64,000 nucleotides of DNA from an uncultured Gammaproteobacteria bacterium (GCA_964409875.1 CAYPEN010000001.1:70362-134361); one strand, 5' to 3'; shown: positions 10,588 to 57,782, counted from the stretch's first letter. Notes: a model not told the origin generated them from the sequence alone. A program made the numbers and translations.

Positions 10588-11040
10588 ATGAAGTATAATT
10601 TTGGTATGAACCAGGAATTGGAACTTATTGTCAGAGCACTTATCATCAAAAACAGAAAAATTTTAGTGTGCCAGACCACTGGCCGCGGTTATTATTTTCT
10701 TCCCGGTGGCCATGTAGAATTCGGGGAAACCATGCAGGAAGCATTGAGGAGGGAGTTGGATGAAGAGTTGGAAGCTAAAGTAGTCAGGTCACAATTCATT
10801 GGAGGTTTTGAGAATCTTTTTGAACAAGATGGACAAAAAAAACACGAAGTTAGTTTTATTTTCCAGGTAGATATCGACATCACGGACATTGTTTCCCGTG
10901 AAGAACATATTTCTTTCTATTGGTTCACAATGGATGAATTTGTTAATGAGAATATCGCTCCCCCTGCGTTAAAGGATGCAATTGTCGCATGGACTGCGGA
11001 GAAGGAGATATTTTTTGTTGAAGAAAAGAAAGGCCATTGA
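10588..11040 (+). CDS. NUDIX hydrolase
   Basis: 150 aa. Nudix box GGHVEFGETMQEALRRELDEELE. Confidence 0.8.
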   Translation: MKYNFGMNQELELIVRALIIKNRKILVCQTTGRGYYFLPGGHVEFGETMQEALRRELDEELEAKVVRSQFIGGFENLFEQDGQKKHEVSFIFQVDIDITDIVSREEHISFYWFTMDEFVNENIAPPALKDAIVAWTAEKEIFFVEEKKGH

Positions 11041-11804
11041 GAGCTATGGCAGTCCCTCCAAAATCCCATCATCATAAGAAAAGAAGAAATCAGATTATTA
11101 AGTTCTTGATAATAAGAACCATCGGGAATTTCCTTGTCCTCTTTACTATTTTTGGAGTTGCGGCAACATTCGGTCCGGCGCTATATTTTGAGGCCAGATA
11201 CGAAGCGGCAAAAATACTAAAAGTAAGTTATAAAGTGGCAGAGATACAAACCGTTTCGCAAGGACCTTCGGAGCTTGGAAAAATCATTCAACGAGAACAA
11301 ATACCAAAAACTCAACCCAATCTTTTTGATTCGGTTTTAAGCGGACAGAGGGAGGAAATTCTCTATCCCCAGGACCCCATGTTTTCGGTTGTTATCCCAA
11401 AAATCGGAGCCAATGAAAAAATCATTCCAAATGTTGACCCCGATAATGAGAAAGAATATCTTGGCGTTTTGTTGCACAATATCGCGCATGCAAAAGGCAC
11501 AGCATTTCCGGGAGTCAATGGAACAACATATCTTTTCGCCCACAGTACGGATGATTTTTGGAATGTAGGACGGTATAATGCTGTTTTTTATCTTCTGAAT
11601 AAAATGGAAAAGGGCGATGAAGTTGTGTTGTTCTTCAATAACAAAAGATACAACTACATTGTAAATGATACGAAAATTGTCGACCCTAACGATACCCACT
11701 TTATAACAGCCAATTTAGGACAGGGGGAGAGGGTTATACTTCAAACGTGTTGGCCGCCGGGAACAGCGTGGAAGAGGCTTCTAGTTTTTGCAGTACCCAA
11801 ATAG
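11037..11804 (+). CDS. sortase family transpeptidase (putative)
   Basis: 255 aa. N-terminal TM. Conserved His region (YLFAHST) and VILQTCWP matching the TLxTC catalytic Cys motif. Confidence 0.5.
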   Translation: MRAMAVPPKSHHHKKRRNQIIKFLIIRTIGNFLVLFTIFGVAATFGPALYFEARYEAAKILKVSYKVAEIQTVSQGPSELGKIIQREQIPKTQPNLFDSVLSGQREEILYPQDPMFSVVIPKIGANEKIIPNVDPDNEKEYLGVLLHNIAHAKGTAFPGVNGTTYLFAHSTDDFWNVGRYNAVFYLLNKMEKGDEVVLFFNNKRYNYIVNDTKIVDPNDTHFITANLGQGERVILQTCWPPGTAWKRLLVFAVPK

Positions 11805-12668: not shown

Positions 12669-13151
12669 ATGACTGCCCGTGCATTATATTTATTTTTGTT
12701 TGTTATAGCGCTTAGTGTTTTCCCTTTCGTAGTCTTTAATCTTCTCATTTCAAGCACGTCACTTTTGCCGGGTGCTAAATCATTTGTCATCTCAACAGGC
12801 TCTATGGAACCGGTGTTACCGGTGGGAAGCATTATTTATACATTGAGACAACCGGAATATAAAGTAGGAGAAGTTATCGCATTTCTTAAGGACAGCGGGG
12901 TAGTATCACACAGAATTATCGGGACAACTATAGTGGGAGGGGAAAGGTATTATCTGACAAAAGGGGATGCAAATAACGTTGTAGACGAAGACCTTGTACA
13001 AAAGAACAGCGTATACGGAAAAATTGTTACATTTGTGCCAATTGTAGGTAATATTATTTTGCTTTATAAAAATCCGCTTGGAATAATCTTCGGAACCGTC
13101 TTGCCCACGCTTCTGTTCCTGGCTTCGAAAATATCACCCTATAGTTATTGA
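12669..13151 (+). CDS. signal peptidase I, SipW/archaeal-eukaryal type
   Basis: 160 aa. TM then ISTGSMEPVLPVGSIIY (GSMEP catalytic Ser box) and the HRIIG/GDAN boxes. Confidence 0.75.
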   Translation: MTARALYLFLFVIALSVFPFVVFNLLISSTSLLPGAKSFVISTGSMEPVLPVGSIIYTLRQPEYKVGEVIAFLKDSGVVSHRIIGTTIVGGERYYLTKGDANNVVDEDLVQKNSVYGKIVTFVPIVGNIILLYKNPLGIIFGTVLPTLLFLASKISPYSY

Positions 13152-14170: not shown

Positions 14171-14204
14171 TACGCCGAGGCACCATCAAGCAACGAACGA
14201 CCGG

Positions 14205-18380: not shown

Positions 18381-19528
18381 TCCGAAGGTATAGCAACTTT
18401 CATGACCCCGTTATTCCCACCCTTTAGAGTATAAGATAACGTAAGATATATATTTTTTACCTCCTTATCATATTTACATGTCCCACCGCCACCGGCACAA
18501 GTTCCCAGAACAACTTGACGCGTGAAAGAAGCGTTGTCTTGTAAAGTTTGCGTGCTTCCAATTACTCCACGTGGTACATAAGAGCCGTCGACCAGCGAAT
18601 CGTAATCCAATTCATAATCAAACGATTTGAGGAGTTCTGTTTTTGTGATAGTAATAACGACGTTATTTTTTGAAGCATCAAGTTGCGCTGTCAACCCGAT
18701 ATCCTGCGGCAAGAGATTAGCTGTTTGTGAGATAGATGGAGTCAAAGTAGGCTCAGTGAATTTGAATGTTGAGAGGATTTGGTCAAAATCAGACACACGT
18801 TTATCTGTTTTTTTCCCACTCATAGGTGCAGTGGACAATGCATAAAGATTGTTATCTTTGATAAATATAATTCTTTTTTCAAATGGTAAAACTTCCGCGG
18901 GATATCCTTTAACAGCAGTCCCAATATACACAGCAGCTGTTGTATTATCAATATTAATATCTGATATTCTTTCAAATAAAGTTCCGATTATTTGCATTTT
19001 CTCACCTTTTTTTATTGTTAATAGTTTTTCATCGTCCTGCCGATTTTGTACAAGATAAGCTGCATTTTTAATGTTGCTACCGTAAATATTGATAATTATG
19101 GGAGGAACATTTATCCCCGATTCTTTTGATGCTTCTGAGAAGTCTAGAATTTCGTAATCTGCATCATTGGTGTCCAATTGTTGTAATTCTAAATCTGAAG
19201 GGTATTTTAGGGCATACAAAAACTTAGAACTTGAATACGTTTTCCAATTTGCAGTCGGGTCGGGGGTCGGGGTAGGAGATGTTTGAATAATTGGTGAAGG
19301 AGAAGGAGTGGGTTTTGAAACAAGTTTCATTATCTGTGGTTTGAGGACTGTAAAACTGGCGGCAGCACCTCCTGCTAAAAGAAGAAAAATAATTATTCCA
19401 ATGATAGCCTTTATGGAAAGCTTGAACTTTCCTCCTGGCTGGTGGATATTAGGAAGAGGAGGTGTTTGCGTAGATTGCAAAACCTCTGGAGCGAGATTTT
19501 CAAGTTGTTGGTTTTGATTCTCTTCCAT
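18377..19528 (-). CDS. hypothetical membrane-anchored protein (paralog of 21536..22672)
   Basis: 383 aa. N-terminal region (KxSxxAIIGIIIFLLxxGGAAASFTVxKPQIMKLxSKPTPxP) nearly identical to 21536..22672. Confidence 0.45.
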   Translation of the reverse strand: MEENQNQQLENLAPEVLQSTQTPPLPNIHQPGGKFKLSIKAIIGIIIFLLLAGGAAASFTVLKPQIMKLVSKPTPSPSPIIQTSPTPTPDPTANWKTYSSSKFLYALKYPSDLELQQLDTNDADYEILDFSEASKESGINVPPIIINIYGSNIKNAAYLVQNRQDDEKLLTIKKGEKMQIIGTLFERISDINIDNTTAAVYIGTAVKGYPAEVLPFEKRIIFIKDNNLYALSTAPMSGKKTDKRVSDFDQILSTFKFTEPTLTPSISQTANLLPQDIGLTAQLDASKNNVVITITKTELLKSFDYELDYDSLVDGSYVPRGVIGSTQTLQDNASFTRQVVLGTCAGGGGTCKYDKEVKNIYLTLSYTLKGGNNGVMKVAIPSD

Positions 19529-21535: not shown

Positions 21536-22672
21536 TTATATGCTGGAGCACCAAAAACACATGTTGCCGGTTGAGACACAACTCCTGTCCACTTTACCGA
21601 ATGAGTCGTAAATTGTTTCAGGTTTTTGTTGCTCCTTTATGGATTGAGGTTTGTAACAAATATTTAGTTTGCTTTCGGTAGAGTTAACAAAAATTTTTGA
21701 AATTGATTGACTATTCGTCGATAAAAACGAGCCTTTTAATTCTCCTTCATCTATCAGAAGGCTTATGCAGGGAACCATTTGACTTAACGAAGTGCCGTTA
21801 GGAGTTGCCGTTGCGCTTGATTGGCAGGGACCGGTTGTACTCCATGGAAAACCTGCATGTGTCGTGTAATATCTTATATTTGCGTTCGAAAACTCGACAA
21901 GGGTGTTGCGCGTGTCTTCATCTTGCCGTTCTAATGCTGGTTGGTTATCGACTGAATTTTCAGTGAATTTGAAGGTGGAGAGGATTTTTTCTGCAGTCTG
22001 GTGTTCTAAACTATTTTTTATGAAAGTATCACTGACAGGAACTTCTTTTACGGCTTGGTCATACTTCTCATGTTCGAAAATAAATTGCTCTCCAGAACTA
22101 CCATATGCAATATTAGGAACCAGAGATTTAGAAATTGAATCATATTTTACGACTCTAATATAATGTGCTATCTTACCTTTTGCTTCTTCAATATCCGACC
22201 GTGCCGGACCAAGTGCAGCAAACCCTAAATATTTTTCTTTGCCAGATATATAACTATGATCGGTTATGTTCCAACCCTGTGGGTATTTAAAAGTAAAACC
22301 TAACTGGCTATTTGTGAATGTTTGCCAGTTGATAGTCTCATGTGACGAAGGTACAGTATAGGGGGTTGGAGTAGGGCTTTGAACAGTTGGTGTCGGAGTG
22401 GGCGTGGGTTTTGAGATAAGTTTCATAATTTGCGGTTTGAAAACGGTAAAACTGGCGGCCGCTCCACCGGAGACCAATAAAAATATGATAATTCCGATTA
22501 TTGCGCCAACTGAGAATTTAGGTTGTGCCGCCTTCGCCTTTTGCTCCAGCGAGCCAGAGGGTTTGTCAGCATTTGAAACGGGTGGAGCTGACGGAGTTTG
22601 AGCGTCATTAGCAACAGAAGAAGTCTGTTGAGAATTAGTTGAATCAAGGTTACTTTTGGTGTTTTCTTCCAC
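21536..22672 (-). CDS. hypothetical membrane-anchored protein (paralog of 18377..19528)
   Basis: 378 aa. Shares an N-terminal ~60 aa block with 18377..19528. Confidence 0.45.
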   Translation of the reverse strand: MEENTKSNLDSTNSQQTSSVANDAQTPSAPPVSNADKPSGSLEQKAKAAQPKFSVGAIIGIIIFLLVSGGAAASFTVFKPQIMKLISKPTPTPTPTVQSPTPTPYTVPSSHETINWQTFTNSQLGFTFKYPQGWNITDHSYISGKEKYLGFAALGPARSDIEEAKGKIAHYIRVVKYDSISKSLVPNIAYGSSGEQFIFEHEKYDQAVKEVPVSDTFIKNSLEHQTAEKILSTFKFTENSVDNQPALERQDEDTRNTLVEFSNANIRYYTTHAGFPWSTTGPCQSSATATPNGTSLSQMVPCISLLIDEGELKGSFLSTNSQSISKIFVNSTESKLNICYKPQSIKEQQKPETIYDSFGKVDRSCVSTGNMCFWCSSI

Positions 22673-44445: not shown

Positions 44446-45902
<1,457 letters not shown>

Positions 45903-46044: not shown

Positions 46045-47844
46045 CTACTTATATACAACTGTTGTAATTCCAGTTTTAAAGTCTCCGGTTATTTCTGTAG
46101 TTTTGCCTGTGTATTCCCGAAAGAGAGTTGTCCTTGGAGTTTTTAGACCAACTGTCCTAGGATATGAAAAAGTTATATAGTAAGCGCCTTGAGTTAATGG
46201 TTTCCAATCGATTCCCCATTGTGCTGTCATAACAATTTGGCTGGTATAGTAGTTTATTATCTTTATTGTTGCATTCGTAGGAGGGTTTGTAACTACTCTT
46301 AAAAGTCCCATATTTGAAGGAAGTTTTGTAGGAGTTGGGGAGAGCGTTGGTGCTATCGTAGGCGTATTTGTGGGAAGAGGGGTAGGAGTATTGGTTGGTG
46401 CATTGGTTGGAGTCAGTGTTGGGAGAGGGGCCATATCAGCCATGACAGAGGAAAAAGATGATTTTTGAGTCCCGTCCGTCTTAACTATTCCAAAAGTCCC
46501 TTCGCAAAGACCGCCTGACGTTGCCTCATCCATAATTTCATAAAGAATAATTATATTAGCACTTGAAAGCTTCAGACTATTTATCGACTTTGTTAAATAA
46601 TTTGCCTGGTCAGACTCAGAATATCCGGCAGTCATCGTACATACTCCTGTTTCTGCAACTGCTACGTCTTTAGAATAACGTGCTCTCACGTCATCTACAC
46701 GTGTGCCGAGTTTGGATATCTCTGTTAAATCTGGAGCCGGATACATATCAACGGACAGTATGTCCAAGTTGTCTTTTATAGCATCGAAAAATTGGTACCA
46801 TCGGGTAATTGTCGCGTCATTCATCGGATATCCGCTGACGTTTGTTGTGACATATGTTTTTGCGTCATTTGTTTTTATCGCATTTTTTGCAACAGCAATA
46901 ACCGAGTTTAAGTCTGATAAATAAGAAGAAGTGAGCGTTGTCATCAGGGAATAATCGCGGAAATTTTGCATATCCGATTCGTTAAAAACTTGCCAAACGG
47001 CAATTTTCCCTGCCCATCTTGATGACAAATACTGATAATACTGGTCGGTAACTGTCTTATAATCATCAAGCATGTAACCTTTTGCAAATGCAGGCGTGTT
47101 AGTTACAAGGAATATTCTTAATCCCTTTTGTACTGCATAATTTATGGCCGTATCATACACTGCAAGATTTGTTGAATTCCAGGTAATTGCGTTTGATGAT
47201 AGACCTTGAACGCTTTGGACAACGGAGGTGCCGGCAGTAAGATCTGCAACGACCGTGGTAGTTTTATTTGGGTAAATTGTGGCTTGAGAAGCTGCAGGTA
47301 TTTTGACAGGTGAACCGTTTATCGTTGTATACGGATATGTGTACGAAATAGAGTACTGACCGGTTGGTAAGCTTACCCAATCAATGCTCCATGTTTTTTG
47401 TGCAACAACTTGGCCACCCTGATCTTTTACGGTTATTGTAGTTTCCACTGCAGGGTTGGTATATACCCTCAAAAGGCCTGGTCCGGGAATAGGTGTTGGG
47501 CTTGGGGTTGCAGTAGGAAGAGTGTTGGGAGTCTCTGATGCTACTTCAAAATCAATGACATTGAACCGTATCCATTTTTGTCCATTAGAAACAAGCGTAT
47601 CAACATTCTGCTTAAATTTATTGATATCCAAATTGTTATTTGCAGCAGATACATGAGTGTTAAACCCAAATTCCGTACCATTCGTAAAAGATGCATGCTG
47701 ACGGATATCTATTTGTTTTGTCGTCATGTAGAATGTTGCGCCAATAAGAAGAGCAAATACTCCGAGAAATGCAAAGAGTCTGAAGTCAGAAATATTATCC
47801 TTCAGTCTTTGTCCAAGACTTTTACTTTTAATTTCTCTTACCAT
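46045..47844 (-). CDS. secreted clan GH-A-like glycoside hydrolase with Thr/Pro linkers and beta-sandwich domains
   Basis: 599 aa. TM then QIDIRQHA motif. Central TIM-barrel-like region with acid/base AVWQVFNESD (NE) and nucleophile-like VAVAETGVC. PTP linkers. C-terminal LLRVVTNP...YYITFSYP domain (PEGA-like). Confidence 0.5.
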   Translation of the reverse strand: MVREIKSKSLGQRLKDNISDFRLFAFLGVFALLIGATFYMTTKQIDIRQHASFTNGTEFGFNTHVSAANNNLDINKFKQNVDTLVSNGQKWIRFNVIDFEVASETPNTLPTATPSPTPIPGPGLLRVYTNPAVETTITVKDQGGQVVAQKTWSIDWVSLPTGQYSISYTYPYTTINGSPVKIPAASQATIYPNKTTTVVADLTAGTSVVQSVQGLSSNAITWNSTNLAVYDTAINYAVQKGLRIFLVTNTPAFAKGYMLDDYKTVTDQYYQYLSSRWAGKIAVWQVFNESDMQNFRDYSLMTTLTSSYLSDLNSVIAVAKNAIKTNDAKTYVTTNVSGYPMNDATITRWYQFFDAIKDNLDILSVDMYPAPDLTEISKLGTRVDDVRARYSKDVAVAETGVCTMTAGYSESDQANYLTKSINSLKLSSANIIILYEIMDEATSGGLCEGTFGIVKTDGTQKSSFSSVMADMAPLPTLTPTNAPTNTPTPLPTNTPTIAPTLSPTPTKLPSNMGLLRVVTNPPTNATIKIINYYTSQIVMTAQWGIDWKPLTQGAYYITFSYPRTVGLKTPRTTLFREYTGKTTEITGDFKTGITTVVYK

Positions 47845-47906
47845 ATATTCACGCTAGCACTATTGCAGTGAGCTGTCAACGGAGTTACGGTTTTTTTGAA
47901 TTTAAA

Positions 47907-49427
47907 TTATTGATATGTTACCGAGGTTTTTCCGGTGTTAAAGTCTCCTAAAATATTTGTCGTTTTTTGTTTTACGATTTTAAAAAGCACAGTTTTCGGA
48001 AGTCTTAACCCTCCTGTTTTGGGATAAGAAAAAGTCACGTAATAATATCCGGGATCAAGTGAAGCCGATTGTATTCCTCCTGTTGCTGTAAGCACTATCT
48101 TCCCTCCTTTTTCCGATAAAATACGAATTGTTGCATTGAGTGTTGGAATAACAACAACATTAAGAATGCCTTTGTTTGTTGGTGTTGGGGTAGGTGTTGG
48201 CATAGACGTAGGTGAAGGCGTTGCTGTGGGTATCGATGTAGGGGTGAGGGTCGGAGTTGGATTAAGCGCAGTTATAACTGCTGTATAGGATGATTTTTGG
48301 GTTCCGTCTGACTTCACTATGCCATAGGAAGTATCGCAGGTGCTGCTTGAGGAATTTTGATCTACAAGTTCGTATTGCAGAAGAAGTTTTGCACTTGAAA
48401 GCCTAATATTGTTGACTGTTTGTGGGACGTAGTTTTGTTGGTCTGTCTCCGAATAAATACCGTTTTGTGTGCAAATTCCTGTTCCGGCGACAACAACATC
48501 TTTTGCATATTTTGATTTCAAACTTTCAATAATTGTACTTAATTTGCTGATTTGCCCAGCATCCGTATTCGGATACATTTCTATCGAAACAACATCTACA
48601 TTTGAATTCACTGCATCATAGAATTGATTCCAATTGGCAACAAGGGTATCTGTGAGCGGATTGCCGCCTGTTGATGTTGAGACAATTGTTGCGGGGTCTG
48701 ATGACTTTATGGCACTGTTGGCTGTAGACAGTATGGAGTTGAATTCTGAGAGATACGTTGGGTCAAGAGAAGACATTGGAGCAGCATCCCGAAAGTTTTT
48801 TATATTCGAATCAGGAAATATGTTCCAAACTGATATTTTTCCCTTGTATCTATTTGATAAAAATTGGAAATATTCTGCTGTTGCAGACTGGTAATCTGAG
48901 ACTACGTAATTGCTCGCAAAACGTGGGGTGGCAGTTGACAAGAATATTTTCAACCCATTTTGATAAGCGTAGTCAATAGCCGCATCGTATACAGAGAGAT
49001 TTGTTGTGTTCCATTGGATAAAAGTAGTAGTGCCCAACACAGTATCGGGAGGGGTCGGTGTTGGACTGACAGAAGGACTAATTGTTGTTTGTGGAATGGG
49101 TGTTGGAGTAGGACCGGGAGGTGGGGAGGCTATATCGGAAGGATTGATTGCGAGTCTTACCCACTGCTGATTGTTGTTCTTAAGCCTGTCAACACTGGTT
49201 TTGAATGTATCTAATTGGAGTGTTCCATTGACCGATAGGTCAGCCGCAAAACCGAATTCCATGCCGGTTCCGAAAGCCCTCTGCCGTATTTCTTGAGGTT
49301 TTCGCGCCATATAGAAAGTTATGCCTATAAGAAGCGTAAAAAGGGCAAGAACTAAGAATAGCTTGAAGTCAGAGATATGCTCAAGAAAATTCTTAAGAAA
49401 ACCCTTTTTCTTTATTTCTTTCACCAT
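47907..49427 (-). CDS. paralog of 46045..47844 lacking both catalytic Glu (probable non-catalytic GH-like protein)
   Basis: 506 aa. Same architecture, with motif QEIRQRA. Equivalent positions read VWNIFPDSN and VVAGTGICT (E->D and E->G). Confidence 0.5.
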   Translation of the reverse strand: MVKEIKKKGFLKNFLEHISDFKLFLVLALFTLLIGITFYMARKPQEIRQRAFGTGMEFGFAADLSVNGTLQLDTFKTSVDRLKNNNQQWVRLAINPSDIASPPPGPTPTPIPQTTISPSVSPTPTPPDTVLGTTTFIQWNTTNLSVYDAAIDYAYQNGLKIFLSTATPRFASNYVVSDYQSATAEYFQFLSNRYKGKISVWNIFPDSNIKNFRDAAPMSSLDPTYLSEFNSILSTANSAIKSSDPATIVSTSTGGNPLTDTLVANWNQFYDAVNSNVDVVSIEMYPNTDAGQISKLSTIIESLKSKYAKDVVVAGTGICTQNGIYSETDQQNYVPQTVNNIRLSSAKLLLQYELVDQNSSSSTCDTSYGIVKSDGTQKSSYTAVITALNPTPTLTPTSIPTATPSPTSMPTPTPTPTNKGILNVVVIPTLNATIRILSEKGGKIVLTATGGIQSASLDPGYYYVTFSYPKTGGLRLPKTVLFKIVKQKTTNILGDFNTGKTSVTYQ

Positions 49428-49483
49428 ATAATACCCTCAGTTCAGGCTAGCACACATCCTGGTATAGAGTCAATAAAGATACG

Positions 49484-49798
49484 TTATTTTTTGGGGGAAA
49501 CGACGAGGCAGCAAATGGCGAGCTTACCGAGTCTTTGAGTGCATTCTTTTTTCCCTGATTCTCTTTCAACCTCTCCAAGAGGGCAATTGGCTTCAGCCCG
49601 GCATACATTCACCCGGCCATCGGGGTTATTGGGTGGACAGCCTGGGGTTTCGATTGTAGGCGTAGGTTCAAGAAAATGGTTTGAAGCTTGTTGTCGGATA
49701 TCCTGTCTTTGATTGACAAGGAACATAGTTACACTGAGGACAAATCCGATACCGGCAACGCTAAGAATTGATAATATTGAAAATTTATTGCTAGGCAT
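49484..49798 (-). CDS. small secreted Cys-containing protein with post-TM QDIRQQA motif
   Basis: 104 aa. TM, motif, then 6 Cys. Confidence 0.4.
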   Translation of the reverse strand: MPSNKFSILSILSVAGIGFVLSVTMFLVNQRQDIRQQASNHFLEPTPTIETPGCPPNNPDGRVNVCRAEANCPLGEVERESGKKECTQRLGKLAICCLVVSPKK

Positions 49799-49836
49799 CT
49801 CATTTCAAGATAGTTCTTGATGGGATGAATGTCAAG

Positions 49837-50700
49837 TTAATCTGCCTCATGAGGTTTCGGTTCATCTGTACGGGGCGGCTTTGATATTTCCGGATTATCA
49901 TGTTCTTGTTGTGGGGTATTGAGGATGGGCAAGGAAGGATTTAGAGGCACTGTCGGTGAAGGGAGAACAAAAGGCGTAGGAGTTGCCGGCGGTTGGGTGG
50001 GAGTGGGTTGAGGTGTTGTCATTTGTATTGACTGGAATTGCACTTGCTGCTTTATCTCTTCCAGTTTTTCCTTTGTTTGTTCGATGTTGTCCACTATATC
50101 AGGAGGAGTCTGGTGAGAAGTAGGAGTATTATCTGGAGCAGGAGTTGCTGTAGGGATTGCCGTGCGCTCTGAAGGGTTTTGGCGTGAATTATTTGGTGGT
50201 TGATAGATTTTTGTCGGAAAAATGCGCAGAGGAGTTGTTGGTTTCGGGGTTACATGTAATGTTGAGGTGGGAGTGGGGGTTGGAGGAATATAAGTTGGAT
50301 CTAATTTTTGCTGAGTTTGGGTCAGCCTTTCCTGGTAGTCGTTTATATCGTTGATGAGTTTTTCTTGAAGTACTTCTTTTTGTTTTTGATCCTTTATATT
50401 ATCAACTGATTCTTGAGTTTTTGTTGCTTGAACCACCAAGGTATCAAGTCCTGAGGTGTTGGCTTTGTAGGTGATGAGCTTTTGCGCCTCGTCAAAGCGA
50501 CGTTGGGTAAGAGTAGAGTCATAAGATGCTTTTGCCTCCGGGGTAAGCGAAAAAACGTATGCTCCCACATTCTCCATCCCAAGCTTTACCGGATATAGAA
50601 ATTCGCCCGGTATCGCATTTTGGGCAAATAAACCGATCAGGGTCACGGGAAAGAGTAAATAAAGGCTTACCCACAAACTTCTATTGAGAAATTTCCTCAT
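49837..50700 (-). CDS. hypothetical secreted protein with Thr/Pro-rich C-terminal half
   Basis: 287 aa. Signal-anchor. Coiled-coil-like middle. PTPT-rich tail. Confidence 0.4.
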   Translation of the reverse strand: MRKFLNRSLWVSLYLLFPVTLIGLFAQNAIPGEFLYPVKLGMENVGAYVFSLTPEAKASYDSTLTQRRFDEAQKLITYKANTSGLDTLVVQATKTQESVDNIKDQKQKEVLQEKLINDINDYQERLTQTQQKLDPTYIPPTPTPTSTLHVTPKPTTPLRIFPTKIYQPPNNSRQNPSERTAIPTATPAPDNTPTSHQTPPDIVDNIEQTKEKLEEIKQQVQFQSIQMTTPQPTPTQPPATPTPFVLPSPTVPLNPSLPILNTPQQEHDNPEISKPPRTDEPKPHEAD

Positions 50701-50844
50701 TCATTAAACGTAAAGGATTATTCAGCTCAAGTCAAATGAAATGAAGATGGTGTAGTGTGTGTAAATCCGTTTATCGAAGATTAATCCTTTTCACTAAATA
50801 CATTGTGGGTGATGAACATGTTCTCGCCCACCGCACTTCGTTTG

Positions 50845-50912
50845 TGGGTGATAAAGGAGTCGGACCTTTGACCTCGTTCTTACGCTCTGATGGAGTGAGT
50901 GATCAGGAACGC
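50845..50912 (-). pseudogene. partial tRNA-Ile copy (anticodon arm to 3' end) with a 20-nt insertion in the anticodon loop
   Basis: Identical to the tRNA-Ile 3' portion except CTGA[tcactcactccatcagagcg]TAAGAACG. No D-arm or 5' acceptor strand. Confidence 0.6.
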
Positions 50913-50953
50913 ATTGAAGATATTTTTGATACTCCTTTTCACCGAAGGTATTG

Positions 50954-51025
50954 TGGGTGATAAAGGAGTCGGACCTTTGACCTCGTTCTTATCAGGAACG
51001 CGCTCTACCGTTGAGCCAATCACCC
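50954..51025 (-). tRNA. tRNA-Ile (anticodon GAU)
   Basis: Manual fold. Acceptor GGGTGAT/ATCACCC. D-arm GCTC/GAGC. Anticodon stem CGTTC/GAACG with loop CTGATAA. T-arm AAAGG-TCCGACT-CCTTT. Confidence 0.8.
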
Positions 51026-51127
51026 TAATTTTGATTGGTAAAACGGCAAACTTGTTTACCGTTGAGCCAATCACCCTAATTTTGATTGGTAAAACGGCAA
51101 ACTTGTTTACCGTTGAGCCAATCACCC
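51007..51127. repeat. tandem repeat, 51-nt unit x ~2.4, each unit starting with the first 19 nt of tRNA-Ile
   Basis: accgttgagccaatcaccc + taattttgattggtaaaacggcaaacttgttt repeated. Units contain two inverted repeats (ccaatca/tgattgg; aacggtaaac/gtttgccgtt). Confidence 0.85.
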
Positions 51128-51277
51128 AATATTAAACTTCGGAAGATAATTATATCAAAATTGCCTCAAAAGAGCCATATTATTCTTCTTGCCATTTATC
51201 AATCCGTTTGCTAATCTTATGTATCTTTAGTTTGGTTCCTAACTACTTGCTACCAACTACAAACTACTAATTACATT

Positions 51278-51847
51278 ATGGTTTTATCGGACAGAGATAT
51301 CAAAGCATACATTAAGGAGAAAAAAATTGTTATAACCCCTACCCCGGATTTTGCAACGCAGCTGGGGACGTGTTCTCTAGATCTTCGGTTAGGCAACAAA
51401 TTCAGGGTATTTGACCATAGTAAAAATCCCTATCTTGACCCTACGAAAAAAGATTATACAAATGAAATTACCAGTGAGGTTAAAGTAAAAGAGGGTGATG
51501 CATTTATCATGCAGCCAGGGGATTTTGTTTTGGCCGTTACCATGGAACGGGTAAAAATACCGACAGACTTATTGGGTAGACTTGAAGGGCGTTCTTCGCT
51601 TGGAAGACTTGGAATCGTCGTCCATTCAACGGCAAGCATTTTTGATGCCGGTTGGGACGGGCAGTGTGTTTTGGAACTGGGAAATTTGGGAAGAATGCCG
51701 GTCGCTTTGTATCCAGGAATGAGAATTTGCGCGATGGCTTTTGAACAACTTTCATCACCTGCTGAGGTTCCATATGTCAAAAAAACCCACGCTAAATACC
51801 GTTTTCAAAAAGGCCCCCAGGAGAGTAGATACAATCAAGATAAATAA
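51278..51847 (+). CDS. dcd: dCTP deaminase
   Basis: 189 aa. LSDRDI, LDLRLGNKFRVF and GRSSLGRLG motifs collinear with E. coli Dcd. Confidence 0.85.
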   Translation: MVLSDRDIKAYIKEKKIVITPTPDFATQLGTCSLDLRLGNKFRVFDHSKNPYLDPTKKDYTNEITSEVKVKEGDAFIMQPGDFVLAVTMERVKIPTDLLGRLEGRSSLGRLGIVVHSTASIFDAGWDGQCVLELGNLGRMPVALYPGMRICAMAFEQLSSPAEVPYVKKTHAKYRFQKGPQESRYNQDK

Positions 51848-51962
51848 GCCAATAGAGTCATCCTGCACTTGACCATTCTTCAGAATGTCGAAATCCGGGA
51901 TCTCATGGGATCCTGAAACAAGTGGGTGCTCCACACACAGCTACGCCTCAGGATGACGATTC

Positions 51963-53054
51963 CTACAGAACTAGCAAAAATATTCCTCCCAGGATTACTA
52001 TTATTGCCCCACCAATAATTCCAATTGTTTGAGCCATACCGCCCGGTTTTGCTATGGTCGGTGTAGCCGTCGGCGGAATTGGTGTTGCTGTTGCGGTCGG
52101 TACAACTGTAGCAGTTGCGGTGGGTTGCAAGGATGGGGTGGGGGTCTGAGTTGGTGAAATAGTAGCAGTGGGGGTGCTGGTGGGTGTCGGAGATGGAGTT
52201 AAGGTTGCTGTTGGCGTTGGTGTATAGGTAGCAGTAGGAGTGGGGGTGTTGGTGGGAGTTGCAGTGGGGGTATTAGTTGGGGTGGATGTCGTAGTATTTG
52301 TAGGGCTAACAGAAGTTGTTATTGTTGCTGATGGCGTTGCCGTTATTGTTACTGACGGTGTTGTTGTTGCGGTGGGGGTAGCAGTTGGTGTAATTTCCGC
52401 GTCAAGTACAGAACCAAAATCAGTCGTCCAGTACCAATTCTGGTCGTGCGTTGATTGGACGCGCGCAATGCCAATTGCAACAGCTTGCGCGTCTTTCATT
52501 TGCTCCCTGTGGGCATACGTACAGTTATTTCCATTCGCATCCCCGTCGCATCCGTTTTTCCACGCATCGAATGCACTTTGTCCGGTTGGCCCTACCCAAG
52601 CAATATTTTCTGCAATATGGGGAGCGCTATAGCCAAATGAGGGGATTCTTGTATTAATATTTCTGCCTTTCGAATCCACATGGTCTAAGTGTCCTGAAAC
52701 TGCCATGTCATTCGACATCCAGTCGGCCGATTCCGTAAGCTTTACGGAAATTTTCAAAGGGGATAGTCCAAATGTGGCACGGTAATCATTAATCAGTTTT
52801 AAAAAATTCCACTCTTCAGTGTCTATGTCTTTAGTTGAAGTTGTGGTAGTAGTTGAAGGAGTAGTGGTATCATTTCCGCTTGCACGTTGTCTGTTATCTT
52901 GCTGTTGTTTGATAAGAATTGTTGTGATAATAAGAGCTACCAAGACAAAAGTAATTGCACCGATGAGAACGAATTTTTTCTGCACAGTTAATATTACCTT
53001 TTGAACCTTTATAAACGCAATACTGATAGCATTCCGCTTCAAATTTTGATACAC
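51963..53054 (-). CDS. secreted CAP/SCP (PR-1-like) domain protein with Thr/Pro linker and C-terminal hydrophobic tail
   Basis: 363 aa. TM then QQQDNRQRA motif. CAP-like core ([10 protein letters not shown]...[11 protein letters not shown]...AWKNGCDGD). Long TPT repeat. Ends KPGG + 22 hydrophobic residues. Confidence 0.55.
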
Positions 53055-53065
53055 TTACCGCTAAT

Positions 53066-53137
53066 GGCGCGGTGGCGAAGTGGTAACGCGGGGGTCTGCA
53101 AAACCTCTATGCGAGGGTCCGATTCCCTTCCGCGCCT
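53066..53137 (+). tRNA. tRNA-Cys (anticodon GCA)
   Basis: Manual fold. Acceptor GGCGCGG/CCGCGCC. Anticodon loop CTGCAAA. T-arm GAGGG-TCCGATT-CCCTT (one G-U). Confidence 0.7.
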
Positions 53138-53162
53138 CAAATTTTAGTTTACGTTCTTCAGG

Positions 53163-53248
53163 TTGGCGAAGAGATCACTCACCGTTTCACGGTGTAATGC
53201 AGCGGTCTGCAAAACCGCGATGCAGGGGTTCGATTCCCCTCCGCGCCT
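53163..53248 (+). pseudogene. degenerate tRNA-Cys-like copy (intact anticodon arm/T-arm/3' acceptor strand; no matching 5' acceptor strand; ~22-nt insertion in D region)
   Basis: GCGGT-CTGCAAA-ACCGC, AGGGG-TTCGATT-CCCCT and CCGCGCC are present. The 5' side reads GGTTGGCGAAG[agatcactcaccgtttcacg]GTGTAATGCAG. Confidence 0.5.
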
Positions 53249-53415
53249 CACGAAACATCAATTTTTTTAATTCACGAGTTTTCTTTGTTGCCAATGGTGT
53301 TTGGTTTCGCCCCGATTCTCCCCTTCGGGGATCCGGCTTTCAGCATGACCCACGTGCCTCAAAATTCCCCAAACCCCTATAGTATTTTTCTTAATTTGTG
53401 CTATAATTCTTACTT

Positions 53416-53625
53416 ATGGCAAGTCCTGAGAAAGGTGGAGGTGGCGTTATCGAAGCCTACAAAAACGTTAACAGATATGTAATGGCAGGTGCTTTAAGCC
53501 TCGCTTTTTTAGGTGCATTTTTTGCACCTCCTCTTATTGTCCCTGCGCTTGAAATAGCAGCTGCAGAGGGACTAAATCTCATCGGCACCAACTTCATGCA
53601 AAAAGCCTTCACAAAAAGCGGCTAA
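53416..53625 (+). CDS. small membrane protein
   Basis: 69 aa with one TM helix. Confidence 0.3.
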   Translation: MASPEKGGGGVIEAYKNVNRYVMAGALSLAFLGAFFAPPLIVPALEIAAAEGLNLIGTNFMQKAFTKSG

Positions 53626-53846
53626 GACTCTTAAAAACTGTTAGGTAATTATCAAGCTGGGAAGATTGTTTACTGCTACAATTTCCTAATGAAAGAACAA
53701 TATCATCCCACAGAACCTTTAAAAAAGGGTGTTCAAATAACAGCAATATCGGCAATAAAAATTACTGAAGCATTACAACCAAGAATAGAACCAAGAATGC
53801 GAAGAAGTATTATTGGGGCTATATCAATTCTCTTCGGTGAAAATAG

Positions 53847-54215
53847 CTAACGCCGTGTACGAATTCCCTTCACTTTTGTTAGAGGTTTTACCGGATTCTC
53901 GCTTATTGTTGGGGTTGGGGTTGGAGATGCAACAGTTGGCGTTGGTGTTGGAACAGTGGAGGTTGGCAAAACTATTGTCGGAGTAGGCTCGGAAGCTTTT
54001 TGACGTGTGTCTTGTTGCTGGCTTAACTGTTGAATAGTGATTGGGAGAATAAGAAGCGCAATTGCAAAAGCACCAACAGGGATAAGTCCTGTGTAATTTC
54101 TCCCTTTTTTTGGTATTTTTGCTCCACCGCCTGGGATCGGATTTTGAAATGTATCATTCAGTCCAATTTTTGGGGCAAGTGGTCCCTGGAACGAATTTTG
54201 TGGTATTTCTGCCAT
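53847..54215 (-). CDS. small secreted Thr/Pro-rich protein with post-TM QQQDTRQKA motif
   Basis: 122 aa. TM, motif, PTPT linker, basic C-terminus. Confidence 0.4.
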   Translation of the reverse strand: MAEIPQNSFQGPLAPKIGLNDTFQNPIPGGGAKIPKKGRNYTGLIPVGAFAIALLILPITIQQLSQQQDTRQKASEPTPTIVLPTSTVPTPTPTVASPTPTPTISENPVKPLTKVKGIRTRR

Positions 54216-54220
54216 GTTTT

Positions 54221-54829
54221 TTATCGACTCGGAATTACGCTCGTGGAAGAAAGCACGATTTGCATCGGAGTAGTAGTATCAAGAACTGAGAATTTGGTTT
54301 TTTGAGTAGTAACAGCTGATTTTGGCAAGAATGTAACTTTCGTTGAGGTAACCCCTGAGAATTTGTTAGCTGTGAATGATAGTTGTCCGATGCTTGCTTT
54401 GCCAACTTTCTCGGTATCACCAAGCGCAATAGAAAGAGCATAGGAAATTCTTCCTTGTGTCTTGTCAATAGTATTTATTAAGACAATCGGGTTTTGCCCG
54501 AAAAGCTGGCCTGGAACAAGTGGAGTCAGTGTCACATTGGTAAGCGCTGTGGGGTCATACGTAAGCTCAACTTGTGCGCCAGCCACGGATTGGCCGTTAG
54601 TATCAAGAATAATATCCACCTTTTGCGCAGGGGTGCTTTTGGATACGTCCAACAATGGCGTTGAGAAGGAAAGCGAAGCAAAAGGCCGGATGACTACTGG
54701 TGTTGCAGTTACCGTGTTGGAGACTGATTTGCCTAGATTCTGAGTCTGATCTGAGCGAATAGCAACAAAGATAAGAACTCCTGTAATTATTGCGAGAATG
54801 ATAATAAGAATTGTCGTCTTTTTGGGCAT
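54221..54829 (-). CDS. membrane-anchored cohesin-like domain protein
   Basis: 202 aa. N-terminal TM. ~150-aa domain with QKVDIILDTNGQSVAGAQVELTYDPTALTNV and IGQLSFTANK...TSTKVTF resembling type-I cohesin strands. Homologous to the N-terminal domain of 55047..56615. Confidence 0.45.
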   Translation of the reverse strand: MPKKTTILIIILAIITGVLIFVAIRSDQTQNLGKSVSNTVTATPVVIRPFASLSFSTPLLDVSKSTPAQKVDIILDTNGQSVAGAQVELTYDPTALTNVTLTPLVPGQLFGQNPIVLINTIDKTQGRISYALSIALGDTEKVGKASIGQLSFTANKFSGVTSTKVTFLPKSAVTTQKTKFSVLDTTTPMQIVLSSTSVIPSR

Positions 54830-54945
54830 AGATTTAAATGTTCAATTCTTTACGTTGTATAAGAATGGTTGTTTTTTTGGGCATAGATTTAAATGTTCAA
54901 TTCTTTACGTTGTATAAGAATGGTTGTTTTTTTGGCATAGTAGGT
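54819..54945. repeat. 55-bp tandem direct repeat (x ~2.3) duplicating the start codon and first ~9 codons of the cohesin-like gene
   Basis: tttttgggcatagatttaaatgttcaattctttacgttgtataagaatggttg repeated. Each extra copy gives ATG + ~12-15 codons then a stop (MPKKTTILIQRKELNI*). Confidence 0.85.
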
Positions 54946-55046
54946 TTTTATAAGTCTTTCTTCATTATTGCATGCGGAAGTTTTGGAGTCAAAACTTCCT
55001 GAAAAGAGGAAGAAAGTCTTGGCTCCGTTCCCATTCGGTCACTCCG

Positions 55047-56615
55047 CTAGTCTCCATTTCTATTTATCGTGTTATATTGCATGATATTAATGTCATCATT
55101 ATCTTCCGTAGTTACTCCGTCATCATCCAGGTCTCCAAGGATTGCAATATCCCCTGTACAAGCAGTTTGATGGTTAAAGCAGGCCATAACATTCGTAAAG
55201 TCTTGTATATCAAGGGCGTTATTTTGGTCAAGGTCTCCAGTTACAAGTTCTACGACCGGTGTTGCATTGTCCTGCTTTGTCTGGTCGATATGCACTATTC
55301 CGGGAAGTCTTTTCTTTAGAGTGTTGTCCATCCGTACTTTTACTACATAATTGCCGGTCGGTAACGTGGTTCCTATTCCGACACTCCCTTCGTATTGGGC
55401 GGTAGCTGGGTTGAAATCAACAGTGCCCGTCTTTTCTGAGATCTTTGCGGATTCAGAAGACGTACTATCATATACAGACACTTTTACCGTTCTTCTGGTT
55501 CTTACCGGATGGTCATTCTCGCCATTCTTCTTGCTGATACCCGGAAGCTTTAGTGAAAGCTTCAGGCCTGTTTCTCCAGCTGCAAGGGTTACTGTCGGGA
55601 TTTGGGTTGGAGTGACCGTTGAAGTGACGGTTGTTGTGACTGTCGTTGTAACAGTCGTAGTAGTAGTAACTGTAGGAGAATTTGAGTTGCCATTCATATT
55701 GTATGTGCTCTTGTAACATTTAGATGCAACACCATTGTATGTAGTGCAGTCTGCGTTGCCGGCTGCTATTTCTGACCATCCGGATGGTACTGTTTGGGTT
55801 GTAGGGAGACAGTAGTTAATTGAACCATCCGTTTGGACTGTCGGGCAGCCATTATTGGTTCCGCTTGTTCTCTGGTATCCATTAGCGGCCGTGCAAACTC
55901 TTGCCGAAGCTCCGAGATATGTGGAACAATCTGTCTGTGTTGCTGTTTCACCAAGAGCCGTCTCGCAGGCCTCGCCTGTCGGCCTACAGTGATTCTTACC
56001 GTTATTGTAGTCAAAAGATGTATTGTTATTATCGTTGCTTCCCTGACTGCCACCCAGTGTAAAGCTCGCCTTTATGTTGTCTTTGTTATCAACATTAACG
56101 TAGGTACTAATTAATTGTGAGGTTGCTTGAAGGGAGGCTGGGTCGATAGAAACAGTAGCTGTACCGTTTTTTAATGCCTTGAATTTAAATGTGAAAACCT
56201 TCAAGTTATTTCCCATGACGGGGGTAACATTAGGGTTTATCATGACGACTTCAAAAGTTCCATTTTCATTTGATTTTTGTATTGCTTGTAGATTTGTGGA
56301 TTGGGAAGCCTCACTTACTTCAAGTAATGTTCGGTCGTAGAGCAATTTAAAATGAAGGGCACCCACGTCATTTGTTGCTGCGTTCATTATAAGGTCGACA
56401 TTTTGTGCCTGACCTACGGCTATATTGCCTGTTGCAGGAGAAAAATTGAATGTTATTGAAGGAGCAGTATCTGCCCGTTGCCGTAGGTCTTGCTGTTTAA
56501 GCACTTGATTTATGACAAAAGGAAGCGAGAGTGCCGCGATAGCCACAATTCCGGCAATAAGTTTTGGGCGATGGTTTGTGGCAAGCAATTTTAGCTTTGA
56601 GATAAATGGTTTCAT
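55047..56615 (-). CDS. scaffoldin-like protein: cohesin-like N-domain, Cys-rich module, Thr-rich linker, C-terminal dockerin-like repeat pair
   Basis: 522 aa. TM then QQDLRQRA. GALHFKLLYDRTLLEV cohesin-like domain. TVTTT repeats. C-terminal GDLDQNNALDIQDF and GDLDDDGVTTEDNDDINIMQ (DxDxDG Ca-loop pairs). Confidence 0.45.
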   Translation of the reverse strand: MKPFISKLKLLATNHRPKLIAGIVAIAALSLPFVINQVLKQQDLRQRADTAPSITFNFSPATGNIAVGQAQNVDLIMNAATNDVGALHFKLLYDRTLLEVSEASQSTNLQAIQKSNENGTFEVVMINPNVTPVMGNNLKVFTFKFKALKNGTATVSIDPASLQATSQLISTYVNVDNKDNIKASFTLGGSQGSNDNNNTSFDYNNGKNHCRPTGEACETALGETATQTDCSTYLGASARVCTAANGYQRTSGTNNGCPTVQTDGSINYCLPTTQTVPSGWSEIAAGNADCTTYNGVASKCYKSTYNMNGNSNSPTVTTTTTVTTTVTTTVTSTVTPTQIPTVTLAAGETGLKLSLKLPGISKKNGENDHPVRTRRTVKVSVYDSTSSESAKISEKTGTVDFNPATAQYEGSVGIGTTLPTGNYVVKVRMDNTLKKRLPGIVHIDQTKQDNATPVVELVTGDLDQNNALDIQDFTNVMACFNHQTACTGDIAILGDLDDDGVTTEDNDDINIMQYNTINRNGD

Positions 56616-57782
56616 TTATGGAAAAGTGTTGGTTATTTTTAAAACATGGATATTTTTCCAGGCTTGGAATCCGAGAAGGTCAACCGTTTTGTTTGGGCTC
56701 ATGCACGCACTCCTTGTCGTGCTAATTGCATGCAGATACTCCTGTTTCCATACATTAAAGTCGTTCTCGTCAATTTTCCCGTCCTCTACCGGGTCACACG
56801 TAGACCCATTTCCGCCTGCAATTCCGGTGTTGGTCCCACCACTAGCATTGTTATTCGTCCCAGCTGGTGTTATAGGTGGAAGACAATACGTAGCGATACT
56901 AACGGCACCTCCTGAATATGCTCTACAATCGAGTCCAGTTTGACAATCATCTGCACATGCGCATTGGGCGCCGTTTGAAAACGAATGTGACTTGGTGCAT
57001 TGACCTTTGGGAGTTTCACAAATATATACACCTGCTTCTAATTGACATGAAAGTCCAGCAGAGCACTGAGAAGGATTAGCTGAAGGAACACAAGATTGAC
57101 CATTAAGCCTCGTTCCAGCACATCCTGGATCGGTTGTGTTTGTGCAGGTACCAACCGGTGCTGACCCATATTGGCAAACACCGTAAGAAAGGCCAGAGTA
57201 CATTGCACAATATAAATGCTGACCTGAAGAATTCGTGTCGGTTGTATTGCAGCTTGGAAAAGCATTAGGGTCTTGACCAGGTCTCGCACTTTCGGCTGTT
57301 ATAGTGTCGCATGTTTGTCCTTGATAACTGGTTTGAGCAGGGGTAGGACTTTTGGATGGTGAGGGTGAGGGACTTGTGAGAGGTTTAGCTTGAGGGGAGG
57401 GAGAAACTGTAGGGGATGTAAAGGATGGCATCTGGCCATCGCCAGGTATATACGTTATGCCGGGGGTAGGAATGTATTGGTACCCGTCACCATAATATGT
57501 AGTGTTCCCTTGAGTAACTGCCGTATTGTCAGGGACAATTGGATGTTGGTAACTACTTGCACCAGGAATTGCAACACAAAGATAACTTCCGCCTACCAGC
57601 CGATATTCACATCCCCCTTGTTGTGCAAATGAAGTTATAGAAATAGACAACAGGAGAAATGAGATGCCAACAACAATAATTGTTGTTTTATATGAGCGAA
57701 AAACAAATTTCTTCAATAACTTCAAAACCATACAAAATACAACAGGTACTATCATAGTATGTAGTTTGTGAAAAGAAGTCAA
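56616..57782 (-). CDS. Cys-rich secreted protein with C-terminal dockerin-like Ca-binding repeat
   Basis: 388 aa. TM. >25 Cys in the middle (similar to the Cys module of 55047..56615). C-terminal DPVEDGKIDENDFNVWKQEYL. Confidence 0.4.
   Translation of the reverse strand: MTSFHKLHTMIVPVVFCMVLKLLKKFVFRSYKTTIIVVGISFLLLSISITSFAQQGGCEYRLVGGSYLCVAIPGASSYQHPIVPDNTAVTQGNTTYYGDGYQYIPTPGITYIPGDGQMPSFTSPTVSPSPQAKPLTSPSPSPSKSPTPAQTSYQGQTCDTITAESARPGQDPNAFPSCNTTDTNSSGQHLYCAMYSGLSYGVCQYGSAPVGTCTNTTDPGCAGTRLNGQSCVPSANPSQCSAGLSCQLEAGVYICETPKGQCTKSHSFSNGAQCACADDCQTGLDCRAYSGGAVSIATYCLPPITPAGTNNNASGGTNTGIAGGNGSTCDPVEDGKIDENDFNVWKQEYLHAISTTRSACMSPNKTVDLLGFQAWKNIHVLKITNTFP

Follow-up and report, generated by a model that had tools for sequence, protein, structure and literature searches.

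Known export signals and a motif-bearing gene cluster

The YSIRK-G/S and KxYKxGKxW signals are long, portable and lineage-restricted N-terminal signals with a motif, found on many unrelated surface proteins, and some of their carriers are LPXTG-type sortase substrates. The same description applies to an N-terminal export module that ends in the motif Q-Q-Q-D-[ILV]-R-Q-[RHQ]-A and is shared by six minus-strand genes in a 64-kb stretch of DNA (CAYPEN010000001.1:70362-134361; referred to as the window, with all coordinates counted from its first letter). The module differs from both signals in the placement of the motif, which lies in the n-region or at the start of the h-region in YSIRK-G/S and KxYKxGKxW and after the hydrophobic helix here, and the cleavage sites of these two signals are ordinary AxA sites.

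Other described systems resemble the module in part. The SipW-cognate signals (TasA/camelysin type, TIGR04088) are likewise specialised and conserved around the cleavage site, and the genome studied here encodes an archaeal/SipW-type peptidase, but their consensus, which is GGTxAxFSD-like, differs from that of the module. The LPXTG/sortase and PEP-CTERM/exosortase signals have the same tripartite layout (motif outside, membrane helix, basic residues inside) and also occur on many unrelated surface proteins of one lineage. The module is N-terminal and thus their mirror image, which rules out acyl-enzyme transpeptidation on the mature part; a cognate enzyme for it was not found. The lipoprotein export signal (LES) of Bacteroidetes is a short polar, charged motif next to a signal sequence on many unrelated proteins as well. 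It determines where these proteins finally reside. It follows the lipidated Cys in the mature protein, whereas the module has no Cys and its motif lies before the likely cleavage point. With a standard Sec signal cut by type I signal peptidase (SPase I) the module shares the basic n-region, the hydrophobic core, an Ala at the putative -1 position and a small or polar +1 residue other than Pro. It deviates by Gln at -3, Arg at -2 and -4, a core of ~21 residues that is followed by a 10-residue helical polar segment, and near-invariance over nine positions.

The pattern [DEQ].RQ.A was searched in all six reading frames of the window and gave exactly six matches. All of them lie directly after a ~21-residue hydrophobic segment near the N-terminus of minus-strand open reading frames (ORFs) between 46 and 56.6 kb (Table 1). 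By the amino-acid frequencies of the window itself, 0.27 matches would be expected by chance in ~19,100 ORF residues, and none of 2000 shuffles reached six (maximum 3). A hidden Markov model (HMM) of the module, trained on 148 external carriers, scored the six ORFs at 42-50 bits and the next best window ORF at only 10.6 bits; the exported proteins at 2276, 4738, 9813, 18377 and 59880 are therefore without the module. These results agree with the initial annotation, which had reported a basic N-terminus, a hydrophobic helix and the motif for six proteins and had excluded the other secreted proteins; the six peptides that it quoted were all found in the respective ORFs. Two of its statements need revision. 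The CAP-domain gene, given as 51963-53054, starts at MQKKF in the database gene call and spans 51963-52985 (340 aa). Furthermore, the conserved unit is not the short quoted motif but a module of ~35 residues that includes the membrane helix with [IL]-P/G-x-T.

At the conserved positions of the six genes, Arg is encoded by CGA, CGT, CGG, AGA and CGC, Gln by CAA and CAG, and Ala by GCT, GCA and GCC. Between ORF 55047-56615 and its ortholog in the syntenic locus L122, seven synonymous changes are found over the motif. The module is therefore conserved as a protein and not as a DNA repeat; a repeat acting at the mRNA or DNA level was ruled out, as the codons differ. The downstream domains had been described as unrelated, which is correct for most of the cluster. 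The exceptions are ORFs 46045-47844 and 47907-49427, which are paralogs with 47% identity over the glycoside hydrolase (GH) domain, so that the window holds five independent architectures and not six: a GH53-like protein, a 104-aa Cys-rich protein, the CAP protein, a 122-aa protein with a Pro/Thr-rich tail and a 522-aa, weakly cohesin-like protein. The last of these (ORF 55047-56615) has weak cohesin-like similarity at its N-terminus, and its C-terminus appears dockerin-like by eye.

Spread and anatomy of the module

To determine the spread of the module beyond the window, a 42-column HMMER profile of the six N-termini was searched against 1.84 billion cluster representatives with no word index. 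A total of 361 protein clusters were found at E<=1e-3, 7 of them at E<=1e-10. In 148 of the best 150 of the 361 matches the motif is located near the N-terminus, with the invariant Ala at residue 27-80 (median 48) of proteins that are 77-1235 aa long. The remaining two are an unrelated protein (P0117) and a variant with QQQQTLRQRA that was missed by the anchoring pattern (P0142). KQxQDNRQRA is present in all orthologs of the CAP protein, over a range of 45-99% identity. The motif is also kept in homologs of ORF 49484-49798 (P0010, P0021, P0150), in orthologs of ORF 53847-54215 (P0004, P0006, P0014, P0041) and in homologs of ORF 55047-56615 (P0002, P0005 and others).

Since the matches were selected with a profile of the six window sequences, the conservation values of the 148 carriers given below are somewhat inflated. 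P-x-T is not invariant in the six queries yet strong among the matches, which speaks for a genuine family rather than a mere reflection of the query. Two word-index searches were negative. The six-sequence N-terminal alignment gave 14 word candidates and no match, the index being too coarse for a short motif, and 65 N-termini against 5.8 billion sequences gave 3159 candidates with none at E<=0.01, a cut-off too strict for a 43-column profile.

At the DNA level, the exact coding pattern for QQQDIRQRA was found at 46 loci in metagenomes of the Joint Genome Institute (JGI). ORFs with an N-terminal helix and the motif, in low-GC DNA resembling Candidate Phyla Radiation (CPR) sequences, account for 36 of these; several are from 0.1-µm groundwater filtrates, going by the contig names. 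In the remaining 10 loci the pattern occurs out of context, and 9 of these lie in high-GC DNA. A scan of a viral contig collection for QQQDIRQRA returned no match. In genome contigs, a DNA pattern for QQQDxR(CGN)QxA matched at least 120 loci, nearly all unrelated and mostly high-GC, with none listed as helix plus motif. The module HMM reached a maximum of 15.8 bits in 0.92 Mb of other bacteria chosen for QQQDxRQxA as a negative control, and found 67 ORFs with at least 25 bits in 0.44 Mb of CPR-like loci.

The named carriers belong to Candidatus Levybacteria (P0049) and to a Patescibacteria group bacterium (P0139). The dCTP deaminase of the window falls into a 90%-identity cluster with MDO8269791.1 (Candidatus Levybacteria); together with the gene content, this places the window in a Levybacteria-like member of the Microgenomates (CPR/Patescibacteria). 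Carriers are clustered in the genome, with six in 10.5 kb of the window, seven in 22 kb of L122 and four clear ones in 13.7 kb of L149. The Patescibacteria contigs L173 and L171 have one strong carrier each, beside MurJ, ribosomal protein S20, PilN and PilO. These two are of cohesin/Big_13 type (L173) and PKD type (L171), and their C-terminal tail resembles a sorting signal.

An origin by chance, local paralogy or gene conversion within one cluster, without general function, has next to no probability left and is regarded as already refuted. It would suit the proximity of six genes within 10.5 kb, two of them paralogous, but the module occurs in at least 361 clusters elsewhere on unrelated domains, the codons of conserved residues have diverged synonymously, orthologs keep the motif down to 45% identity, and no shuffle equalled the observed count. 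Local paralogy alone, which the initial annotation had named as the outcome that would overturn its proposal, thus does not describe the family. The export module exists, is portable, is conserved at the protein level, is restricted to a lineage and is joined to extracytoplasmic domains.

It consists of three parts: a basic n-region (KK/KR), a hydrophobic helix with a fixed length of ~21 residues, and the helical juxtamembrane peptide that contains the motif. With the invariant Ala as position 0 and counts out of 148 carriers unless stated otherwise, Lys or Arg is found at -32 and -31 (86/146 and 89/146), and the hydrophobic stretch of fixed length covers -30 to -10. Within this stretch, Ala, Leu or Val occurs at -20, Leu at -19 (103), Ala, Ser or Gly at -18 (110), Ile or Leu at -17, Pro (121) or Gly (18) at -16 and Thr at -14 (113). 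It is followed by Gln or Lys at -8, Gln at -7 (111) and at -6 (145), Asp (128) or Glu (19) at -5, Ile, Leu or Val at -4 (128), Arg at -3 (147), Gln at -2 (144), Arg (113), His (15) or Gln (15) at -1, and Ala at 0 in all 148. Position +1 is Ser (85), Ala (26) or Asp (17); Ser, Ala, Asp and Glu together account for 134 carriers. Pro occurs once at +1 though it is common at +3 to +5, and conservation falls away right after +1. The Ser or Ala that follows the module leads usually into a Pro/Thr-rich linker or directly into a domain.

An AlphaFold2 (AF2) prediction for the CAP protein, run with 15 orthologs, gives, at only moderate confidence, a single helix from residue 2 to residue 35. It stops exactly at the invariant Ala, and a disordered linker follows. 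For the N-terminus of the CAP protein, the block-mean pLDDT (predicted local distance difference test) is 65-80 over residues 1-30 and below 50 from residue 31.

Two further signal sequences of the window were noted. The DUF5667 protein within the cluster has a helix with F-P-V-T that is followed by LFA/QNA; the P-x-T kink thus also occurs outside the motif carriers and may be common to the signal sequences of this organism in general. Two helix-anchored proteins outside the cluster (Table 1) have a different post-helix sequence in common, GGAAASFTV[LF]KPQIMKL[VI]SKPTP, which is probably simple paralogy.

Table 1 Coordinates of module carriers, motifs and other features in the 64-kb window
Feature	Position	Strand	Remarks
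Module, ORF 46045-47844 (GH53-like by Pfam, 599 aa)	47689..47790	-	SDFRLFAFLGVFALLIGATFYMTTKQIDIRQHA followed by S; 43.6 bits
Motif of ORF 46045-47844	47692-47718	-	invariant Ala is residue 51
Module, ORF 47907-49427 (GH53-like paralog, 506 aa)	49272..49373	-	SDFKLFLVLALFTLLIGITFYMARKPQEIRQRA followed by F; 41.7 bits
Motif of ORF 47907-49427	49275-49301	-	
Module, ORF 49484-49798 (104-aa Cys-rich protein)	49682..49783	-	FSILSILSVAGIGFVLSVTMFLVNQRQDIRQQA followed by S; 45.0 bits
Motif of ORF 49484-49798	49685-49711	-	
Module, CAP-domain protein (51963-52985)	52878..52979	-	33 residues, then Ser; 47.7 bits
Motif of CAP-domain protein	52881-52907	-	
Module, ORF 53847-54215 (122 aa; conserved cytoplasmic head, Pro/Thr-rich tail)	53991..54092	-	TGLIPVGAFAIALLILPITIQQLSQQQDTRQKA followed by S; 48.5 bits
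Motif of ORF 53847-54215	53994-54020	-	
Module, ORF 55047-56615 (522 aa)	56469..56570	-	RPKLIAGIVAIAALSLPFVINQVLKQQDLRQRA followed by D; 49.2 bits
Motif of ORF 55047-56615	56472-56498	-	
Degenerate family member, Cys-rich	56616..57782	-	by alignment with orthologous carriers; 5.9-6.9 bits
Sortase-family transpeptidase	11037..11804	+	PF04203, E=5e-19; context only
Archaeal/ER-type signal peptidase I (SipW-like)	12669..13151	+	TIGR02228, 77 bits; candidate processing enzyme only
GC-rich island	13250-15350		
mreC	15395-16186		
Helix-anchored paralogs without the module	18377-19528 and 21536-22672		other post-helix sequence
16S rRNA gene	44446-45901		
DUF5667 protein	49837-50700		
dCTP deaminase	51278-51847		
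C-terminus of CAP-domain carrier	51963-52100		
[SP]-F-[QN]-G-P-L-[AT]-P motif of ORF 53847-54215	54168-54194		
Cohesin protein	54221-54829		plain membrane anchor

The module is apparently uncatalogued. Across the six window proteins and 98 carriers, no Pfam or NCBIfam model matches the N-terminal module; SurA_N_3, which spans the PpiD helix, was not counted. A full-text literature search with motif strings and with CPR signal, sorting and sortase topics found no description of it. Among CPR papers on these topics, two give only sortase and SignalP counts, and one of them reports sortase to be near-ubiquitous in Microgenomates (PMC6744442).

As the initial annotation had stated for lipobox, Tat and prepilin signals, the module fits none of these, nor a YSIRK or SipW-cognate signal. 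From -34 to +1, no position has Cys among its five commonest residues, and Cys appears only from +3, so that there is no lipobox. A conserved RR is missing, the n-region being KK/KR with SSYKRT in some carriers, and no Tat model of NCBIfam or Pfam matched. The prepilin site G/F-x-x-x-E before the helix is absent; the conserved motif follows the helix. Neither YSIRK-G/S (TIGR01168) nor KxYKxGKxW (TIGR03715) was matched in the six window carriers or among the 25 families listed for the 98 carriers, and the SipW-cognate model was likewise not matched by NCBIfam in the window carriers or among the families listed for the 98. As for LPXTG, the module is N-terminal, and its internal [IL]-P-x-T lies inside the helix and precedes Ile, Val or Leu instead of Gly; a sortase LPXT site within the helix was ruled out, being buried and followed by a hydrophobic residue.

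Fate of the module after export

The module could well be a specialised Sec-type signal peptide that is cleaved after the invariant Ala by a peptidase of the S26 type or by a dedicated one, and this reading is preferred here, tentatively. It would send the protein through the Sec pathway in an N-in/C-out orientation. The polar peptide would serve as an extended recognition site (P9-P1') for an enzyme of the signal peptidase type, which would cut after the Ala and free the mature protein to be docked by dockerin-cohesin contacts, anchored by sortase or secreted. Candidates for the enzyme are a dedicated protease and an S26 peptidase (LepB or archaeal type) whose S3/S2/S4 specificity is altered. 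Sec dependence, cleavage, its position and the enzyme are all inferred.

Several observations point to cleavage. The Ala is the last strongly conserved residue, the residue after it is small or polar with Pro nearly excluded, and the AF2 helix of the CAP protein stops at this Ala, in a segment of moderate confidence. The N-terminal signal of studied LPXTG proteins is removed, and carriers with LPXTG-like signals or dockerins would be expected to leave the membrane, while the cohesin protein in their neighbourhood (54221-54829) has an ordinary anchor that lacks the motif. Plain membrane anchors without the motif are common in this genome, so that the motif is not needed for anchoring. In addition, the degenerate family member (ORF 56616-57782) is orthologous to carriers (the L122 ORF at 6148, and P0092) but lacks ~9 residues, SQDLRQHAS. 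In the alignment it reads ...SISITSFA/QQGGCEY, compared with ...QQSQDLRQHA/SGGCHF in the orthologs. The place of the motif is thus taken by a canonical small-x-small site, equally far from the first Cys of the mature domain.

According to the initial annotation, the motif does not fit the AxA scheme of SPase I. This holds for the -3 position, which is not small. The invariant Ala followed by Ser or Ala is nevertheless compatible with a -1/+1 site, so that the motif may be an unusual c-region within the Sec/SPase framework. The basic n-region and hydrophobic h-region of a Sec signal are present, although the h-region of ~21 residues is longer than typical. With the Ala counted as -1, Ala is found at -1 in 148/148 carriers, Gln at -3 in 144/148 and Arg at -2 and -4. 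The polar segment in the place of a c-region has ~10 residues and is predicted to be helical up to the Ala; the only conserved breaker is the Pro/Gly 16 residues before the Ala, in the hydrophobic helix. A Pro/Gly there would lend itself to removal of the cut signal peptide by an intramembrane protease.

A number of points weigh against cleavage after the Ala. Gln at P3 and Arg at P2 and P4 break the rule of a small, neutral -3 residue that holds for known type I signal peptidases. The putative site lies ~10 residues beyond the ~21-residue hydrophobic stretch, in a continuous predicted helix that has no breaker nearby. Judged by the rules for the ER and E. coli, the module resembles a signal-anchor that stays uncleaved. 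The carriers include PpiD-like foldases, which other bacteria keep permanently anchored, and cleavage would discard the conserved cytoplasmic head with [SP]F[QN]GPL[AT]P in these foldases and in the family of ORF 53847-54215. Neighbourhood clustering and tblastn over 48 other loci, 38 of them with carriers, revealed no peptidase gene consistently adjacent to carriers. The somewhat inflated conservation values belong on the same side.

These points lead to a rival reading that is possible, if rather unlikely, namely an uncleaved type II signal-anchor in which QQQD-I-RQ-R-A forms a rigid juxtamembrane stalk that docks the carriers to a common partner or sets their height. Such a partner could be the translocon/PpiD complex, an envelope scaffold or a membrane microdomain. 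The length of the helix and the basic residues on its N-side would suit a signal-anchor, which must in addition stay uncleaved. The continuous AF2 helix across membrane segment and motif of the CAP protein, the 21-residue hydrophobic stretch, and a polar segment with neither a helix breaker nor a small -3 residue are consistent with it, as is the presence of PpiD-like foldases and small bitopic proteins with conserved cytoplasmic heads among the carriers. Monoderm CPR cells need anchors, and many other exported proteins of the window are helix-anchored. However, the same genome has many plain anchors that lack the motif. A docking helix also leaves the invariant terminal Ala, the Ser/Ala at +1 and the exclusion of Pro unexplained. 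Dockerin carriers and LPXTG-like carriers would be tethered twice, and the variant that lost the motif (56616-57782) gained a canonical cleavage-type site.

Anchoring and cleavage would be reconciled if a dedicated enzyme cut at the motif, after the invariant Ala, and the new N-terminus (Ser) were covalently fixed to the envelope, either to lipid or to peptidoglycan. This would amount to an as yet undescribed envelope-sorting pathway in Microgenomates, bacteria with minimal genomes, and would be the N-terminal equivalent of the sortase/exosortase or lipoprotein pathways; its enzyme would read the P-x-T helix together with QQQD-I-RQ-R-A; we consider it unlikely. P9-P1' has a very high information content, on a par with known sorting signals or above them; the arrangement is that of LPXTG and PEP-CTERM signals in mirror image, and some carrier families are lipoproteins in Firmicutes (PrsA/PpiD-like, YkwD/DalA-like CAP). 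Yet no candidate enzyme was found beside the carriers, and a protease acting on an N-terminal signal cannot form an acyl-enzyme with the mature part, so that the attachment chemistry would have to differ. Moreover, we infer this pathway throughout.

Cleavage further upstream is very improbable. A canonical signal peptide could be cut at [AL]-L-[AS] (-20 to -18), inside the hydrophobic stretch, which would leave the motif at the mature N-terminus. The residues at -18 and -20 formally fit the -3/-1 rule after an h-region of ~10 residues. This site is poorly conserved, however, with Leu, Leu or Val at -18 in three of the six window proteins; it has no polar c-region, its use would expose a hydrophobic IPITIxLV N-terminus, and the downstream Ala is far more conserved. 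Cleavage ahead of the Gln run was ruled out because position -9 is not small.

The enzyme of the preferred reading was sought in the neighbourhood of the carriers. The sortase-family and SipW-type genes that the initial annotation had placed at 11-13 kb are both present (Table 1). No link between these genes and the motif was found: they are located 33 kb apart from it, and tblastn found no homolog of either in 48 other loci, 38 of them with carriers. No recurrent peptidase, sortase or SipW gene was found beside carriers; the only recurring neighbours are dCTP deaminase and a helix-anchored cohesin protein, both because of synteny.

A single case of a peptidase-like neighbour is L129, in which a fusion of an RDD domain and a LepB-type Peptidase_S26 domain (442-1380) sits directly upstream of two carrier genes. 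The fusion has Ala in place of the nucleophile Ser (GPAMEP compared with GSSMEP in 4me8), which recalls the non-catalytic SipA/LepA pilus-assembly factors of streptococci.

Cargo, neighbouring genes and implications

A Pfam search of 98 carriers gave 34 families, all of extracytoplasmic types. The most frequent are Dockerin_1 (18), Cohesin (14), SurA_N_3 (PpiD-like, 7) and GH53 (4), followed by Laminin_G_3, CAP, Big_13 and SdrD_B with 3 each; fn3, PA14, M23, beta-helix, PKD and others are also found, and L123 has VWA-domain carriers in addition. With at least 34 Pfam families and hundreds of clusters, the earlier view of the motif as a portable N-terminal signal rather than a part of a fold is supported.

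Among the top 150 carriers, twelve terminate in a hydrophobic helix that follows LPETG, IPVTG, VPVTG, MPVTG, LAPTG or a PG[GES]-type sequence, and for one of the twelve the JGI annotation is LPXTG cell-wall-anchored protein. Some of the carriers may thus be sortase substrates. The C-terminus of the CAP-domain carrier, including its orthologs P0152-P0164, consists of PTIAKPGG and a hydrophobic helix without a basic tail, and looks like a variant C-terminal sorting signal.

The cohesin protein of the cluster has a plain membrane anchor without the motif and is a neighbour of carrier ORF 55047-56615, homologs of which bear dockerins. The pairing of a carrier with a plain-anchored cohesin protein recurs in about ten other loci. 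With cohesin and dockerin as the commonest cargo, the domain content points to a cohesin-dockerin surface assembly in a CPR bacterium.

The small Pro/Thr-rich family of ORF 53847-54215 and PpiD-like foldase carriers (P0018, P0054, P0066, P0068, P0069, P0071) share the motif [SP]-F-[QN]-G-P-L-[AT]-P, located in the cytoplasm ~30-40 residues before the membrane helix. Its conservation suggests a functional role for the cytoplasmic head.

Besides the carriers, dCTP deaminase is conserved in the vicinity of the module. Counterparts with 60-88% identity lie between a few hundred bases and a few kb away from a carrier in 13 of 38 carrier-bearing loci (L122, L123, L132, L136, L140, L142, L147, L148, L152, L153, L156, L157 and L160). 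This is conserved synteny around a surface-protein island, with no obvious functional link. The 16S rRNA gene abuts the secreted-protein cluster and is solitary, as no 23S or 5S rRNA was detected in the window. Between the SipW-type peptidase gene and mreC, an island of ~2 kb has a GC content of 0.59-0.65, compared with ~0.40 for the genome; it contains overlapping ORFs without Pfam matches, no Rfam family was found in it, and it may be a foreign insert or an assembly chimera.

The module is a real, lineage-wide N-terminal export module. It adds one more member to the known class of motif-bearing N-terminal sorting signals, and its putative cleavage site is clearly non-canonical. Generic predictors are likely to label carriers as membrane anchors or to overlook a cleavage site that has Gln at -3. 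A specific reader is implied by the near-invariance of the nine-residue site. It would be either a peptidase of unusual specificity or a docking partner and could be searched for by phylogenetic profiling as was done for PEP-CTERM/exosortase. Whatever the mechanism, the module is a ready family definition that is absent from the curated libraries searched (Pfam, NCBIfam).

CPR/Patescibacteria, which live attached to other cells, make up a large share of bacterial diversity, and hardly any of their surface proteins has been characterised. As a sequence tag, the module allows a cheap and specific prediction of part of the Microgenomates surface proteome, with a tagged set that comprises glycoside hydrolases, cohesin/dockerin components, adhesin-like VWA and Ig proteins, foldases and sortase substrates.

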